Assembly (NCBI GenBank): GCA_040223615.1 | Contig: JAVKFY010000036.1 | Span: forward strand, 11,596 to 75,595 | DNA length: 64,000 bases | Direction: 5' to 3' | From: Alphaproteobacteria bacterium | Lineage (GTDB): Bacteria; Pseudomonadota; Alphaproteobacteria; GCA-2731375 | Part shown: positions 18,285-35,145 of the stretch, piece by piece | Layout: each line of letters begins with the position of its first letter | How positions within the stretch are numbered: the first letter of the stretch is position 1 | Translations under genes and position numbers: made by a program | Notes under the pieces: model-generated | The model's input: only the letters and a program-made list of their open reading frames with translations | Databases searched by the model: none | What the model was told of the DNA's origin: nothing

Positions 18285-19625
18285 TCATTGCTGGGTCAGG
18301 CGGAATTCGATGCGCCGGTTGCGGCGCAATTCGTCGCGCGTGTTGCCTTCCGCGATCGGGTGGAACTCGCCCAGGCCGGCGGCCATCAGGCGCTGTGGCG
18401 AAACGCCCTGCCGGACCAGAAAGCGCACCACCTCGGTCGCGCGCGCGGTCGACAGTTCCCAGTTCGAGGGGAACTGCTCGTTGCGGATCGGGCGGCTGTC
18501 GGTGTGGCCGTCGACCCGCAGGATCCAGTTGATATCGGTCGGAATCTCGCGCGCGATCTCCTGCAACGTATCGGAGAACCGTGTCATCTGGCGCCGGCCG
18601 GCCGGGCCGAGCCGCGCCTCGCCGCTGGCGAACAGCACCTCCGACTGGAACACGAAGCGGTCGCCGATTACGGCGATGTCGTCGCGGTCGCCCAGCGCCT
18701 CGCGCAGCCGGCCGAAGAACTCGGAGCGGTAGCGCGCCAACTCCAGGGTCTTCGCCGCCAGCGCCTTGTTGAGACGCTTTTCCAGCGCGAAGATCACGTC
18801 CTGCTGGTCCTTGCTGCGCGCTTCGGAGGCTTCAAGAACTTCATTCAATATCGCAAGTTGCTGCCGTAATTCGTTGAGTTGCCAATTCAATGTGTCGACC
18901 TTGGCCTGCGCGACATCGGCCAACGCGTCGCTCTCGCCGACCCGTGCCTGCAAGCCGTCGCGCTCGGCGGTCAATGCGTCGACCTCGGCCCGCGCGCCAT
19001 CCAGCTCGGCGCGCAGCTTGCGCATCTCCGCCAGGGTCACGCGCAGTTCGCGACCGGCCTCGGCACTTTCGCGACGCAGCGCCGCCAGATCCTCGCTGAA
19101 ACCCTCGCGCGCGTCGCGCTCGACCAGCAGCATCGCCGACAGGTTGGCGACCTGCTTCTCCAGTTCCTCCACGACCCGGTTGCGCTCGCTCTTGGCCGCC
19201 GCCAGTTCGGACGCGGCGGCCTGTTTCTCCTGCTCCAGCAGCGCGGTGAGGCGGGTGACCTCGGCCTGCAACTCGGCCAGTTCGCGACGCGAGCCGGCAA
19301 GGCTGTCGCGCAGTCCCTGCCCTTCCTTCTCCAGCGTATCGAGGTTGCTGCGCAGTTCCTTGGCGTCACCACGCAGCGCCTCGCTCTCTTGCTGGCGGTC
19401 ATCGAGGCGGTCGATCGCCTGGTCGACCTGGTTCTGCAGGAAGTCGAGCGCGGCGCCGCTGGCGCCGGCATCCTGGTTCAGCTTCGAGAGCCTGCCCTGG
19501 ATACGGTCGATCAGGCCCTGCAGATCGGCCGGCGGTGTCGCGGCTTCGTCGTCGGCCGCGCGCACCGGCCCCGCCGCCAGCAGCAGCGCCAGGATCAGCC
19601 CAAGGGTGGCCGCCGGTCGGCCCAA
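18285..19625 (-). CDS. Peptidoglycan-binding OmpA/MotB-domain protein with long coiled coil
   Basis: GDRFVFQSEVLF, LRVDGHTD, NWELSTARA, NRRIEF; TTG start 7 nt after GGAGGAGG, followed by a signal peptide. Confidence 0.85.
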   Translation of the reverse strand: MGRPAATLGLILALLLAAGPVRAADDEAATPPADLQGLIDRIQGRLSKLNQDAGASGAALDFLQNQVDQAIDRLDDRQQESEALRGDAKELRSNLDTLEKEGQGLRDSLAGSRRELAELQAEVTRLTALLEQEKQAAASELAAAKSERNRVVEELEKQVANLSAMLLVERDAREGFSEDLAALRRESAEAGRELRVTLAEMRKLRAELDGARAEVDALTAERDGLQARVGESDALADVAQAKVDTLNWQLNELRQQLAILNEVLEASEARSKDQQDVIFALEKRLNKALAAKTLELARYRSEFFGRLREALGDRDDIAVIGDRFVFQSEVLFASGEARLGPAGRRQMTRFSDTLQEIAREIPTDINWILRVDGHTDSRPIRNEQFPSNWELSTARATEVVRFLVRQGVSPQRLMAAGLGEFHPIAEGNTRDELRRNRRIEFRLTQQ

Positions 19626-21019
19626 GGCCGTGCCTCCTCCAACTGTGCCGCCAGGCGCAGCAGTATCGCCTCCGCACCATAGCGCGCCGCAAGGTGCGCG
19701 CCGACCGGCAAGCCGTCCGGCGTCCAGTAGAGCGGCACCGACATCGCCGGCTGGCCGGTGATGTTGCAGATCGCAGTGAAGGACGCAAACTTGGCGCCGC
19801 GGCGGGCGCCGGCCATTGGCTGGTCCTTGGTGCCGACCATCTCGCCCAGCAGCAATGGCGGCGCCGTGGTGGTCGGCGTCAGCCACAGATCGCGGTCGAC
19901 GAAGAAGCGGGAAACGTCGCGGGTCATGCGCTGGCAATCCTGTACCGCCAGCAGGTAATCGGCGGCGGAAATGTCCCGGCTGCGGCGATAGATCTCCCAG
20001 GTCAACGGCTCCAGGTTGTCCTCGCTCGGCGTGACGCCGTAGCGGCGGCGCCAGTCGGCGATGGCCCAGCCGAGGAAGCCGAACCAGAGCGTCGTGAAGC
20101 CCTTCTGCTGCACGGTGACGTCGAAGCTCGGCTGCGCCTCCTCGGCGTCATGGCCGAGATCAGCCAGCAGCGTCGCGGCGTCCTCCACGGCGGCCAGCGC
20201 CTGCGGGTCGAGCGTGGCACCGTCCGGGGCGGTACGGCTGAACCCGACGCGCAGGCGGCCGGGCGGCGCGCCGACTTCGTCCAGGAAGGCGCGCTCGGGT
20301 GCCGGCGCCTGATACGGGTCGCCGATGTCGGGGCCGGCCGTGGCGTCGAGCAGCGCGGCGGAATCGCGGACACTGCGGCTGACCACGTGCTCGATGGCGA
20401 TGCCGCCGCCGATATCGCCATAGTGCGGGCCCATCGGCATCCGGCCGCGCGACGGCTTCAGGCCGAACAGGCCGCAGCACGCGGCGGGAATGCGGATCGA
20501 GCCGCCGCCGTCGTTGGCGTGCGCCGCCGGGACGATGCCGGCCGCCACCGCCGCCGCCGAACCGCCGCTGGAGCCGCCCGGCGTGCGGCCCAGGTTCCAG
20601 GGGTTGCGGGTCGGGCCGAACAGCAACGGTTCGGTGGTTGGCACCAGGCCGAATTCCGGCGTGTTGGTCTTGCCGATGATGTTGAGGCCGGCGCGCTTGT
20701 AGCGGGCGGTGAGCTCGCTGTCCTCGGTCGCCGGCGGGCTGTCGGCGAGGAACCGGCTGCCCTCGGCCATTCGGGTGCCCTTCAGTTCGGCCATCAGGTC
20801 CTTCAGCAGAAATGGCACGCCGGCGAAGGGGGCGTCGCGGTCCCCCGTGGCGGCGCTGTCGCGGGCCTGCTCGTAGAGCGGCAGGATGATCGCGTTCAGC
20901 TTCGGGTTGAGCGCCTCGGCACGAGCGATCGCGGCCTCGACCGCCTCGGCCGGTCCGATCTCGCCATCACGGATCGCCGCCGCCTGCGCCAGCACGTCCA
21001 GTTCCCAGATTTCCGCCAT
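19595..21019 (-). CDS. Amidase (amidase signature family)
   Basis: [38 protein letters not shown]. Confidence 0.93.
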
Positions 21020-21214
21020 CGCGCCCTTCCGTCGCCGCCTGCATCAGACTCTGCGGCACGACGCGGCCCCTTGTCATCCGGCAGTGGAAGCGAACCTCGA
21101 CCCATAGTGCCCGAGATATGGACGCCTTGTGTCAATGCGGGACGAAATTCGCCGCTCGTGGCAGCGATGTGTCATGGCGTGACGGTTATCGGCCCGAATC
21201 CGCCGATAACCTGT

Positions 21215-21230
21215 TGGCACGAGGCTTGCG
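21215..21230 (+). promoter_or_regulatory. Sigma54 (RpoN) -24/-12 promoter
   Basis: TGGCACG-AGGC-TTGCG, near-perfect match to TGGCACG-N4-TTGCW with GG-N10-GC spacing; preceded by 10-bp inverted repeat GGTTATCGGC-N8-GCCGATAACC (21184-21211). Confidence 0.75.
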
Positions 21231-21240
21231 GTGTAACTCT

Positions 21241-21330
21241 CGAACTCATGAGGATAACGGACCTCCCCCTCGCGTAGAGTTCACCTCTCCGATCGCTGAG
21301 CTCCCCAGTCCCCCGGCTGGGGAGCTTCGC
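21241..21330 (+). ncRNA. Candidate trans-acting small RNA with anti-Shine-Dalgarno motifs
   Basis: Starts at the expected sigma54 TSS. Hairpin GAACUC/GAGUUC with loop AUAACGGACCUCCC, linker ACCUCUCC, then 13-bp hairpin 21298-21327. No credible + strand gene follows. Confidence 0.6.
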
Positions 21331-21354
21331 GTTGTGGCATCCGCGATTCGGCAA

Positions 21355-21383
21355 ACGAAAAAGCGCCGGCCAGAAGCCGGCGC
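21355..21383 (-). terminator. Rho-independent terminator of the small minus-strand gene
   Basis: Minus strand GCGCCGGC-TTCTG-GCCGGCGC followed by TTTTTCGTTT. Confidence 0.75.
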
Positions 21384-21435
21384 CTGGTGGAGACGCGAAT
21401 AGCGAGCCGATCAGCCCCGCCGGAGCGGGGAAATC

Positions 21436-21612
21436 CTAGTGCGCGGTGGCCGGATCGACGCGGGCGGTGTCGTCGTTCGCCGCCTGCGCGCTCAACCGCG
21501 CGATCTCGTCGGCCACGCCATACCAGCAATACTGCTTGGCGACGTGCACGGCGCGCTGGGCGCCAAGGGTCTCGATCAGGTTTCGCGCTAGGTCAAGCTG
21601 GGTCCGTCCCAT
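21436..21612 (-). CDS. Small hypothetical protein (58 aa)
   Basis: TAAGGAG RBS 6 nt before the ATG; MGRTQLDLARNLIETLGAQRAVHVAKQYCWYGVADEIARL...; has its own terminator. Confidence 0.7.
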   Translation of the reverse strand: MGRTQLDLARNLIETLGAQRAVHVAKQYCWYGVADEIARLSAQAANDDTARVDPATAH

Positions 21613-21745
21613 GACCATCTCCTTAGATATTCGCCAACGCCGTTGCCGACGAAGGACTTGGTGGCCTACTCGGACGGAACAACGCAAAAGCCGGGCCAAC
21701 TGTGGCGACGGCGGACGCGGTGCATACGGCAAAAACGGTTAACGA

Positions 21746-22867
21746 TCAATGATCTCTTGCGGTTCCACGCGCCGGATAACGCGCGTGGAAGGCATCGACG
21801 AAGGCGTCGAGCCGGGCCTCGGCGATCGCCTGTCGCAGCGCCGCCATCAGGTCCTGGTAGAAGGTCAGGTTGTGCCAGGTCAGCAGCATCGCGCCGAGGA
21901 TCTCGCCGGTCTTGGTCAGGTGGTTGAGATAGGCGCGGCTGAATTGCCGGCAGGCGGGACAGCGGCAGTCGGGATCGATCGGATCGATGTCCTCGGCGTG
22001 GCGGGCGTTGCGCAGGTTGAGCGGACCGTCCCAGGTGAAGGCCTGGGCGTTGCGGCCGGATCGGGTCGGCAGCACGCAATCGAACATGTCGATGCCGCGC
22101 CGCACAGCACCGACGATGTCGTCCGGCTTGCCGACGCCCATCAGGTAGCGCGGCGCGGCGGCCGTCAGGATCGGCTCGGTGGCCTCGATCATGGCGAACA
22201 TCTCGTCCTGCGGTTCGCCCACCGCCAGGCCGCCGACGGCGTAGCCGTCGAAGCCGATCTCGACCAGCGCGGCGGCGGAATCGCGCCGCAGGTCGGCGTA
22301 GGTGCTGCCCTGGACGATACCGAACAACTTGTGGCCGTCACGCACCTCGAAGGCCTGCTTGCTGCGCCCGGCCCAGTCCATCGACAGCCGCAGCGACGCC
22401 ACCGCCTCGTCGTGGGTCGCTGGATGCGGGGTGCACTCGTCCAGCACCATGGTGATGTCGGCGCCGAGGAGCCGCTGGATCTCGATCGAGCGGGCCGGCG
22501 TCAAGCGATGCTCGCTACCGTCGATGTGCGACTTGAAGGTAACGCCGTCGGCATCGATCTGTCGCCGGCCGGCCAGCGACATGACCTGAAAGCCACCGCT
22601 GTCGGTCAGGATCGGACGGTCCCAGTCCATGAACCTGTGCAGACCGCCGAGCGCGGCGATGCGCTCCGCGCTGGGACGCAGCATCAGGTGATAGGTGTTG
22701 CCGAGCAGGATGTCGGCGCCGGTCTCGCGCACCGATTGCGGCATCATCGCCTTCACCGTCGCGGCGGTCCCCACCGGCATGAAGGCGGGCGTGCGCACCA
22801 CGCCATGCGCCAGTTCCAGTGTCCCGGTGCGGGCGCGGCCGTCGGTGGCGTGGACCTCGAAGGTCAT
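21746..22867 (-). CDS. tgt: tRNA-guanine transglycosylase
   Basis: [34 protein letters not shown] zinc site. Confidence 0.97.
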
Positions 22868-24996: not shown

Positions 24997-27696
24997 TTAC
25001 TCCTCGCTGCCTTCGCTCTCGGCGTCGTCGCCGTCTTCCTCGCCAGGATCGTTCAGCCGGGCTGCCGACACTACCCGCTCCTGGCCGTCGGCGTCGATCG
25101 AGAACAGGGTCACGCCCTGGGTGTTGCGCCCGGCGATACGGATGTCGCCGACGGGGCAGCGGATCAGCCGACCGTGGTCGGTCACCAGCATGATCTGGTC
25201 GGCATCCTCCACCGGGAAGGCGGCGACCACCTGGCCGTTGCGCTTCGAGGTCTCGATGTTGATCAGGCCGCTGCCGCCGCGCCCGGTGACGCGGTATTCG
25301 TAGGCCGAGGTCCGCTTGCCATAGCCGTTCTCGGTGACCGACAGCACGAACTGCTCGGCCTCGGCAAGCATGTCGGCGTCGGCCGGCTTCGGCGGCATCT
25401 CGCCCTCGGCGCCTTCGCGGCGTTGCGCCGTGGCCCAGCGCAGGTAGGCGTCGCGCTGGTTCACCTCCAGCTCGTGGTGGCGCACGATCGACATCGAGAT
25501 CACCCGGTCACCGCGGCCCAGCGACATGCCGCGCACGCCGACCGAGTCGCGGCCCTTGAACAGGCGCACGTCGATCGCCGGGAACCGGATGCACTTGCCG
25601 GCTTGCGCGGCCAGCAGCACGTCGTCGGTCTCGGTGCAGGTCTCGACGCCGACGATCAGGTCGTCGTCGGGCAGCTTCATGGCGATCTTGCCGTTCGACG
25701 GCACGTTGACGAAGTCGGCCAGCGAGTTGCGGCGCACGTTGCCGCTGGCGGTGGCGAACATGATCGACCATTCCGCGGCCGCTGCCTCGTCCTCCGGGAA
25801 CGGCATCACCGCGTTGATCACCTCGCCGTCCTGCAGCGGCAGCAGGTTGACCATCGCCTTGCCGCGGGCCTGCGGCGTGCCGACCGGCAGGCGGTAGACC
25901 TTCAGCCGGTAGACCCGGCCGAGCGAGGAGAAAAACAGCACCGGCGTGTGGGTCGAACAGACGAAGACCCGGGAAACGAAATCCTCGTCGCGCGTCGCCA
26001 TGGCGGCGCGCCCGCGCCCGCCGCGTCGTTGCAGGCGGTAGGCCGTCAGCGGCACGCGCTTGATGTAGCCGCCGTGGGTGACGGTGACGACCATCTCCTC
26101 GCGCTGGATCAGGTCCTCGTCGTCCTGCTCGAACTCGACGTCGGAAATCTCGGTGCGGCGCGGCGTGGCGAACTTCTCGCGCGCCTCGACCAGCTCGTCG
26201 CGGATCACGCTGACCAGGCGCTCGCGCACCTGAAGAATGTCCAGGTAGTCGCGAATTTTTACGGCGATGTCACCCATCTCGGCGGCGATCTCGTCGCGGC
26301 CCAGCGCGGTCAGGCGCTGCAGGCGCAGCTCCAGGATGGCGCGTGCCTGAGTTTCCGACAGGCGGTAGCGGCCGTCGATCACCTTGTGCGCCGGATCGTC
26401 GATCAGCTCGATCACCGAGGCCACGTCGGCCGCTGGCCAGTCGCGCCCCATCAACGCCTCGCGCGCCGCGGCGGCGTCCGGCGCGGCGCGGATCAGGCGG
26501 ATCACCTCGTCGATATTGGCCACCGCGATGACCAGGCCGGCCAACGCGTGGGCACGCTCGCGCGCCTTGGCCAGCAGACGCCGGGTGCGCCGGGTCACCA
26601 CCTCCTCGCGGAACTCCACGAAGGCGGCGATCAGCTGGCGCAGGTTCATCACCTCCGGCTTGCCGCCGTTCAGCGCCACCATGTTGACGCCGAAGGAGGT
26701 CTGTAGCGGGGTGAAGCGGTAGAGCTGGTTCAGCACCACGTCGGACATCGCGTCGCGGCGCAGTTCGATGACCACCCGCACACCGTTGCGATCGCTCTCG
26801 TCGCGCAGGTCGGAGATGCCCTCGATGCGCTTGGCGCGCACCGCTTCGGCGATCTTCTCGACCATGCCGGCCTTGTTCACCTGGTAAGGGACCTCGGTGA
26901 CGATGATCGCCTCGCGGTCGCGCCGGATGGTCTCCACGTGCGCCTTGCCGCGCACCATGATCGAGCCGCGCCCGGTATGGTAGCCGGAACGGATGCCGGC
27001 GCGGCCGAGGATGTTGGCGCCGGTCGGGTAGTCCGGGCCGTGCACGTACTGCTTCAGGTCGTGCAGTTCGATGGCCGGGTTTTCCAGTTAGGCCAGGCAG
27101 GCGTCGACCACCTCGCCCAGATTGTGCGGCGGCACGTTGGTGGCCATGCCGACGGCGATGCCGCCCGAGCCGTTGACCAGCAGGTTCGGAAACTGCGCCG
27201 GCAGCACCACCGGCTCCTTCTCCGAGCCGTCGTAATTCTCGCGGAAGTCCACGGTGTCGCTGTCGATGTCGGCCAGTAGCGCCTCGGCCGCCTTCGCCAG
27301 CCGCACTTCGGTGTAGCGCTGGGCCGCCGGCGGGTCGCCGTCCATCGAACCGAAATTGCCCTGCCCGTCGACCAGCGGCAGACGCATGGAGAAATCCTGC
27401 GCCATGCGCACCATGGCATCGTAGATCGCCTGGTCGCCGTGCGGGTGATACTTGCCCATCACGTCGCCGACGATGCGGGCCGACTTGCGGTACGGCCGGT
27501 CCGAGGAATACCCGGACTCGTTCATCGCGTGCAGGATGCGCCGGTGCACCGGCTTCAGCCCGTCGCGGGCATCGGGCAGCGCCCGCGACACGATCACGCT
27601 CATCGCGTAATCGAGGTAGGAGCGCTTCATCTCCTCTTCGATGGCGATCGGCGTGATGTCGCGGCCCGGCGGCGGGCTGGTGGTCTCGTCGCTCAA
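24997..27696 (-). CDS. gyrA: DNA gyrase subunit A, interrupted in this sequence by an in-frame TAA at 27088-27090
   Basis: [27 protein letters not shown] active-site Tyr, GyrA box QRRGGRG. The two track ORFs (27088..27735 and 24997..27045) are in the same frame and join to a 2700-nt frame from TTG 27696. Confidence 0.93.
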
Positions 27697-28019
27697 TTGA
27701 TCGTCCCGTTCAGCGGCCGCGCACAGGGCGGCCATTCAGGGCTCCGGAAGCGCCTTCCGGCAGGCCTCTCGCCCGCCTCGCAAAGGCCCGAGAGACTACC
27801 ATTATGTTGCAGGTGCGAGCAACCGACGCGAGCCCCCATTGCGATGCAATGCGGGCATGTTTACCGTTGCTCTATTATTCGATGCTACAAATGACCGCCT
27901 AGTCACGCCAAGGCTTTGTTCGGCACCGCCTGGATGCGAACCTCGAAGATCGGTCCCGCCAGTGCGCATCTTGCGCCGCCACGGCAATCCCGTTGCATTT
28001 CTCGTTCGAATTGTCGCCC

Positions 28020-32056: not shown

Positions 32057-32161
32057 CGCCCTGCTCCGCTCTGTCATTGTCGATTCGCGCGAACGGCTAC
32101 TATGCCCGAGGCGGCCTCGGGCACGCCAGCGGCGGGAATCGCGCGGTGCGCGCCGAGGCCG

Positions 32162-32190
32162 CTTTCAGGTCCGCACCGGCGACCCTATAT
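32162..32190 (+). promoter_or_regulatory. Possible RpoH-type promoter for uvrA
   Basis: CTTTCA-N16-CCTATAT versus alphaproteobacterial CTTGAA-N15/16-CCTATAT. Confidence 0.4.
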
Positions 32191-32226
32191 TGGGGCTTTC
32201 CGGCCTCCAGAATGAACAGGGAGCTG

Positions 32227-35145
<2,919 letters not shown>

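Follow-up and report, generated by a model that had tools for sequence, protein, structure and literature searches.

A candidate sigma-54-dependent small RNA between the amidase and tgt genes of an alphaproteobacterial genome

An intergenic region of an alphaproteobacterial genome carries a sequence resembling a sigma-54-dependent promoter, which points into DNA where no gene of the same strand follows, and the question raised by this locus is what such a promoter could serve. The region lies within the window, by which we mean the whole 64-kb stretch of DNA analysed (64,000 nucleotides, G000:C36:11596-75595); the host genome (G000) has 5.67 Mb and 68% G+C. The only congener in the comparison set is represented by an assembly that is 71% complete (G001). 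The genes around the candidate form a minus-strand series consisting of gyrA, coaD, the gene of a peptidyl-prolyl isomerase, queA, tgt (21746-22867), a gene of 58 codons' product length (58 aa), an amidase gene (19595-21019) and the gene of an OmpA-like protein, and the candidate sits in the 419-bp gap between the start of the amidase gene and the stop of the 58-aa gene (Table 1). The nearest named relatives of tgt among the matches listed belong to Roseomonas, Rhodovarius and a Stellaceae MAG, with about 68-70% identity. One DNA sequencing run contained a 365-nt contig identical to 21238-21602, which offers zero variation to read.

The orthologue of the amidase in the congener is 87% identical, and the likeness upstream of it covers only about 65 bp, after which a different gene begins. 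This stretch (21020-21085), located 5' of the amidase start and including TCTGCGGCA...TTGTCATCCG, is kept between the two genomes and ends abruptly on its far side; it probably comprises the amidase's own promoter and leader. Neither tgt nor the 58-aa gene was found in the congener assembly, 71% complete as it is.

Table 1. Positions of the features discussed, in window numbering unless a contig is named.
Feature	Position	Strand	Remark
Distal dyad TGTGTCAATGCGGGACG, core TGTC-N7-GACG	21128-21144	+	Putative activator site, centre at about -105 from the predicted start
Proximal dyad TGTGTCATGGCGTGACG	21168-21184	+	Putative activator site, centre at about -65
Perfect 10-bp inverted repeat GGTTATCGGC-N8-GCCGATAACC	21185-21212		Ends 2 nt before the -24 box
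Sigma-54 -24/-12 promoter TGGCACGAGGCTTGCG	21215-21230	+	With the preceding T fits YTGGCACGR-N3-TTGC
Predicted non-coding transcript	21241-21335	+	Both ends predicted
Hairpin 1	21242-21282	+	Centroid loop AUAACGGACCUCCC
Linker ACCUCUCC	~21283-21290	+	Unpaired
13-bp stem	21298-21310 with 21315-21327	+	Loop CCCC (21311-21314)
Canonical intrinsic terminator of the 58-aa gene	21361-21385	-	From the terminator scan
Conserved 58-aa gene P0001	21439-21612	-	Convergent with the candidate
Sigma-54-like site TGGCCCGGCTTTTGCG	21683-21698	-	86 nt upstream of the 58-aa gene
Tandem sigma-54 sRNA pair	G000:C52:106405-106789 (L166:806-1190)	-	Two ~130-nt units, outside the window

The promoter and its upstream elements

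The near-consensus -24/-12 promoter described in an earlier note on this DNA was confirmed. The sequence TGGCACGAGGCTTGC at 21215-21229 fits TGGCAC-N5-TTGC, having GG at -24 and GC at -12 with the exact spacing between them. This exact core occurs once in the 64-kb window against 0.09 occurrences expected from shuffled sequences, and at least one match appeared in 8 of 100 shuffles; a search for the looser 16-mer with one mismatch allowed gave two sites against 1.92 expected in the window, which alone is not significant. Genome-wide, the exact core was found at 31 sites (about 11.5 per genome are expected from base composition), 22 of them being intergenic and nine lying inside ORFs, with the intergenic share amounting to about 12.5% of the genome as delimited by a crude GC3-based ORF caller. 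A gene start is located a few hundred bases downstream of most of the intergenic sites. Base composition predicts 0.98 sites of the extended consensus YTGGCACGR-N3-TTGC, which is present at nine; eight of these, including the one considered here, are intergenic. The genome contains a single copy of rpoN and seven good genes of activators (enhancer-binding proteins). NtrC, NtrX, FlbD, PspF and a PEP-CTERM-box regulator exceeded the corresponding NCBIfam cut-offs; a LuxO-like activator reached 635 bits against the model cut-off of 800, and one further activator, encoded at about 198.4-199.9 kb of G000:C40 and assigned to no model, also remained below the cut-offs.

Upstream of the promoter, two dyads are arranged in tandem exactly 40 bp apart and are identical at 14 of 17 positions; both are putative activator sites and fall within about 200 bp upstream of the promoter. 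When the DNA upstream of this promoter was compared with that upstream of the 21 remaining intergenic exact sites, no useful common 9-mer emerged, and the dyad was spotted by eye. The pattern GTGTCA-N3-CG-N-GAC, derived from the two local copies alone, has one other match in the genome (about four are expected from composition), placed 55 nt ahead of the C52:106782 sigma-54 promoter, which belongs to a tandem pair of sRNA units treated below. By our estimate, a single stray match would fall within 200 nt upstream of another exact sigma-54 site in about 1 case in 1000. Of 24 positions compared, the C52 dyad shares 19 with the distal copy of the candidate locus, and a second, weaker dyad, TGTCATCCAGATACA, is found there 43 bp further upstream. 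When the dyad was relaxed to TGTC-N7-[GT]AC[AG], pairs spaced 30-55 bp apart were found at four places in the genome, two being inside ORFs and two, namely the candidate locus and C52, being intergenic; these two are also the only sigma-54 sites with a relaxed dyad within 200 nt upstream. A composite of two dyads and TGGCAY occurred at three places in 33 family genomes, i.e., at the candidate locus, at C52 and, in the congener, at the orthologue of C52, and a control with the reversed pattern gave no matches. The relaxed dyad and the composite were defined after both loci had been seen, and these counts are accordingly descriptive; the independent test is the search with GTGTCA-N3-CG-N-GAC alone. 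The dyad common to the two promoters suggests one shared activator.

Considering that the extended consensus is enriched genome-wide and that the upstream tandem dyads are shared with the promoter of a conserved sRNA pair, the sigma-54 promoter is well supported, and it is likely that the sigma-54 holoenzyme uses this site.

The 10-bp inverted repeat reported to adjoin the -24 box is indeed perfect. It starts at the end of the proximal dyad, occupies the space between this dyad and the -24 box and is the sole such repeat in the 5.67-Mb genome. The repeat could serve as an operator or as a DNA-bending site. Negative control of sigma-54 promoters is uncommon, and a perfect inverted repeat placed exactly where the DNA must loop would offer a handy case for its study.

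The predicted transcript and the convergent gene

The fold predicted for the plus strand of 21241-21340 has a minimum free energy of -43.3 kcal/mol (z = -3.69), and only one of 200 shuffles was as good; for the minus strand of the same stretch z was -1.69, with 16 of 200 shuffles as good, and longer plus-strand stretches gave z values of -3.3 and -4.1. The two hairpins, the linker and the 13-bp stem with its CCCC loop were all found as had been claimed. In the centroid fold the C/U-rich stretches are unpaired, hairpin 1 exposing ACCUC/CCUCCC in its loop, and in the minimum-energy fold of this hairpin the C-run is partly paired. Two pairs of the 13-bp stem are G-U, which makes the plus strand the more favourable one for it. 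The U-tail suspected of being weak is weak indeed: the stem is followed by UCGCGUUGUGG, containing four U in 8 nt, and the terminator scan called no plus-strand terminator anywhere in 20800-22000. The sole plus-strand ORF after the predicted start has nine codons and begins with the ATG at 21248.

The region had been described as intergenic, with no credible gene on the plus strand. This description holds for the plus strand, where nothing longer than the nine-codon ORF follows the start, but the region is not empty, as the conserved 58-aa gene, which converges on the candidate from the minus strand, had been overlooked. Relatives of this gene, with products of about 50-58 aa, occur in 20 of 33 family genomes, and the protein matched no Pfam or NCBIfam family and had no Atlas neighbour. 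A sigma-54-like site precedes it in all four genomes outside the g6 group that carry the gene (G000, G002, G005 and G009), but is absent from all 16 g6 genomes with the gene. The 16 g6 genomes possess another conserved upstream motif, ...TTAGAATTTCTTAATC..., in place of the sigma-54-like site, and in G002 the small gene is tandemly duplicated.

We tentatively assume, with a probability of roughly 0.45, that the product of the locus is a discrete sRNA acting via its C/U-rich stretches. In such a case, the putative activator dyads would serve the plus-strand sigma-54 promoter, a non-coding transcript would begin near 21241, and an sRNA of about 85-95 nt would end at the 13-bp hairpin (21298-21327) or be trimmed back to it. 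Its unpaired loop ACCUCCC and the linker could base-pair with target mRNAs at their purine-rich ribosome-binding regions. Among 399 sampled genes, a crude duplex scan ranked the start region of the amidase gene within the top 2.8%, which is not significant after the testing of three neighbours.

The transcript may also be longer. If the weak hairpin leaks, the candidate transcript becomes an antisense RNA to the convergent 58-aa gene; reading through the gene and perhaps into tgt, it would lower the expression of the gene by transcriptional interference or duplex formation. The weak tail and the absence of any plus-strand terminator call in 20800-22000 fit this explanation, and the terminator at 21361-21385, called for the minus strand only, has no plus-strand U-tract and should therefore let the candidate transcript pass. 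Furthermore, the small gene is conserved and has a sigma-54-like promoter of its own, so that two units converge about 430 bp apart. On the other hand, a G+C-rich stem of 13 bp followed by four U in 8 nt could stop or pause some of the polymerases, and none of the relatives has a sigma-54 site facing the small gene from its downstream side. With these points on both sides, we regard a read-through antisense transcript as rather unlikely and keep the discrete sRNA as the preferred reading.

The search for relatives of the candidate, and the tandem sRNA pair

A BLASTN search with 21020-21440 in 61 genomes matched the own genome only, leaving 60 relatives without a match. The single-sequence covariance model R1, applied to 33 family genomes, recovered the own genome and one chance-level match (E = 0.07) that lies inside a coding sequence and has no promoter. 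The plasmid collection contained no match to the candidate. The pattern TGGCAC-N5-TTGC-N20-45-CCTCCCCCTC was found in 90 stretches of genome contigs across GTDB, distributed over many phyla and close in number to a rough chance estimate; R1 gave no convincing match at the 80 pattern loci listed (E from 0.024 to 0.19). A repeat or a mobile element was rejected as the nature of the candidate, as every sub-segment of the region is present in the genome in a single copy.

The gene order tgt, small gene, candidate and amidase is confined to this genome among the 30 family genomes with tgt. In the 29 others, queA-tgt is conserved, and in each of them tgt is followed by something other than the small gene or the amidase. 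Of the 160 tgt loci listed from genome and metagenome contigs (the best tgt identities among the matches listed being 70% and 73%), none had either gene after tgt or a homologue of the RNA. The conservation check proposed in the earlier note gave a negative outcome: the promoter and the structure are not conserved in the 32 other family genomes, where no homologue that could show covariation was found. This is weak evidence against the candidate, as the only congener assembly, with a completeness of 71%, contains no tgt/small-gene neighbourhood.

What the same methods can detect in this lineage is illustrated by the tandem pair on contig C52. In each of its units a sigma-54 promoter precedes an invariant core, GCUUUCCCU...AUGCCCUCAACCCGGUU, and the terminator is canonical. 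By BLASTN the family is present in 6 of 32 other family genomes, covering three genera with the own genus counted, and both copies occur in the congener (71% complete) with 84% and 82% identity. In all eight C52-type units examined in six genomes, the core is preceded at a constant distance by TGGCA(C/T)-N5-TTGC; the stem of the terminator is variable. Rfam showed only a sub-threshold likeness of C52 to BjrC1505 (23 bits against 50). On these sequence features, C52 probably represents a genuine sigma-54-dependent sRNA family, either undescribed or divergent. Being conserved, well terminated and detectable with the same methods, it indicates that this lineage makes sigma-54-dependent sRNAs. The candidate lacks both conservation and a canonical terminator, and the C52 pair, submitted to a similar BLASTN search, has both and can be taken as a positive control.

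The two loci are alike in the TGGCACG...TTGC type of promoter, in the tandem TGTC-N7-(G/T)AC dyads spaced about 40-43 bp apart and in C/U-rich unpaired motifs with CCCUC. They differ in that the candidate has no U-tract terminator and no relatives in the genomes searched, whereas C52 is found in 6 of 32 genomes, and in that C52 has no counterpart of the inverted repeat by which the dyads of the candidate are separated from its promoter. Paralogy of the two was rejected: the covariance model R2 gave no plus-strand match at 21241-21340 even with the filters off, and on the own genome only the two C52 copies were significant.

The restricted distribution of the candidate bears on another explanation, according to which the promoter is bound and its transcript is functionless, the site being either a relic of a rearrangement that split the promoter from its gene or a recent orphan promoter. 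It agrees with the gene arrangement unique to this genome among the 30 family genomes with tgt and the 160 tgt loci listed, with the different gene upstream of the amidase in the congener and with the lack of conservation of the RNA in both BLASTN and covariance-model searches. However, shuffles fold far less well than the RNA downstream, whose fold favours the transcribed strand, its C/U-rich unpaired motifs are of the same kind as those of the conserved C52 sRNAs, and an intact two-site putative enhancer with a near-perfect promoter would be unexpected for decaying DNA. A functionless transcript thus appears to be an improbable outcome of this locus, if one that deserves to be kept in mind beside read-through, and a functional sRNA remains our preferred interpretation.

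It is very unlikely that the -24/-12 match arose by chance, with nothing transcribed and with the hairpins and the inverted repeat being unrelated intergenic structures. Such a view could rely on the one-mismatch 16-mer occurring at chance frequency, on the number of exact cores that base composition alone would supply to a genome and on the exact sites inside ORFs (9 of 31), which are probably chance ones; it is opposed by the roughly 9-fold enrichment of the extended consensus, almost all of it intergenic, and by the rare tandem dyads that the candidate has in common with the C52 sigma-54 promoter. Translation of the nine-codon ORF can practically be dismissed: about 7 nt separate its ATG from the predicted start, but the ORF has no Shine-Dalgarno sequence, does not occupy the extreme 5' end demanded of leaderless mRNAs, is not conserved and is buried in hairpin 1.

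A proposed shared activator and known sigma-54-dependent sRNAs

If the dyads are read by one protein, the candidate would be switched on together with the C52 tandem sRNAs through the same activator. A more elaborate scheme, unlikely in its entirety, is that one activator of the response-regulator type, the LuxO-like one or the other one below the cut-offs, reads TGTC-N7-GACA and fires a regulon made up only of sigma-54-dependent C/U-rich sRNAs, i.e., the C52 pair and the strain-specific candidate, the latter being gated additionally by a repressor or a bending protein at the inverted repeat. If true, it would be a circuit like that of Qrr or GlmY, with several sRNAs behind one enhancer-binding protein, outside the Gammaproteobacteria. 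The LuxO-like protein is encoded at G000:C44:16236-17705 on the minus strand (L355:837-2306), and its best NCBIfam match is the LuxO of Vibrio. A perfect palindrome, TGTCGGT-C-ACCGACA, occurs about 270 bp upstream of the start of its gene, inside an ORF according to the crude caller.

Sigma-54-dependent sRNAs have been reported in several bacteria, including Qrr1 (PMC10162802), CrcZ/Y (PMC6292655), CJnc230 (PMC11187230) and NcS25 (PMC10117139). A close parallel in promoter architecture is GlmY/GlmZ of Enterobacteriaceae, which depend on sigma-54 and the activator GlrR, whose consensus is given as TGTC-N10-GACA, with three sites (PMC3045617). GlmY and GlmZ stand behind a sigma-54 promoter, as the candidate would, and their dyads have the same half-sites as the TGTC...GAC(G) dyads found here; unlike GlmY/GlmZ, the candidate has a spacer of N7 instead of N10, two sites instead of three and, in place of identified IHF-like sites, the inverted repeat. 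Its RNA shows no sequence or Rfam likeness to GlmY/GlmZ, its host is an alphaproteobacterium, and the cut-off of the GlrR model was reached by none of the seven activators in the genome.

The Qrr RNAs of Vibrio are described as several sigma-54-dependent sRNAs fired by one activator, LuxO (PMC10162802). One of the seven activators found here scores best against the LuxO model, but its 635 bits remain below 800, and the candidate gave no Rfam match to Qrr. A LuxO site has the form TTGCA-N3-TGCAA. It differs from the dyad of the candidate.

Among alpha-rhizobial sRNAs, MmgR is presented as NtrC-induced, with an aSD motif in the first loop and a predicted RpoN motif, and RpoN motifs are likewise predicted for SmelC165 and SmelB033 (PMC7143759). 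In S. meliloti, 112 start sites were predicted to have such a motif upstream (PMC3616915); the sigma-54 motif predicted for the alpha-rhizobial sRNA EcpR1 of this species is reported as inactive on testing at ecpR1 (PMC4414408), a case that speaks for caution with motifs, the present one included. AbcR1/2, NfeR1 and MmgR resemble the candidate in being short, in having several hairpins and in exposing C/U-rich unpaired motifs; none of them appeared in the list of the Rfam E-value scan, so that membership is unsupported and the resemblance is a functional one only. That scan, covering 20500-22200, gave no usable match, the best, at 20.9 bits where the threshold is 70, being to the model of a human lncRNA without relation to the candidate, and the gathering-level scan of the whole window gave zero hits. 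The candidate is below the gathering threshold for AbcR, NfeR1/ar14, suhB/MmgR-like, Qrr, GlmY/Z and other families, in agreement with the earlier view that it could be assigned to no named family. Judged by its sequence, the candidate would resemble sigma-54-dependent sRNA families in its way of working and belongs to none of those compared, and it is possibly a lineage-restricted member of an established class.

Small RNAs of this kind (GlmY/Z, Qrr, CrcZ/Y) are familiar, and one more would leave the field unchanged. The more solid results of this analysis are the dyad in common and the conserved C52 pair; by tying an orphan promoter to that pair, the rare dyad provides a testable hypothesis of a three-RNA regulon in a poorly studied alphaproteobacterial family.

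Several other features were noted in the course of the analysis. Sigma-54 promoters were also found before genes of exported proteins, at L006:1760-2873 (in G002), G000:C66:104323 and G000:C25:87345-88706, and the exported protein of G002 (L006:1760-2873) ends in a PEP-CTERM-like tail. Together with the PEP-CTERM-box response regulator above its NCBIfam cut-off, these promoters fit a sigma-54 regulon of the PrsR type.

Within the window, ARAGORN called a tRNA-Cys with the odd anticodon ACA at 34368-34443 on the plus strand, inside an ORF of 1022 aa (32077-35145). Rfam at the gathering level found no tRNA at this position, and the call is probably a false positive. Finally, gyrA (24997-27735, minus strand) contains an in-frame stop at 27088-27090, at a position occupied by tyrosine in the GyrA of E. 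coli. The gene being essential, this stop most likely stems from an error of sequencing or assembly; failing that, it would mark a pseudogene or a recoding site.
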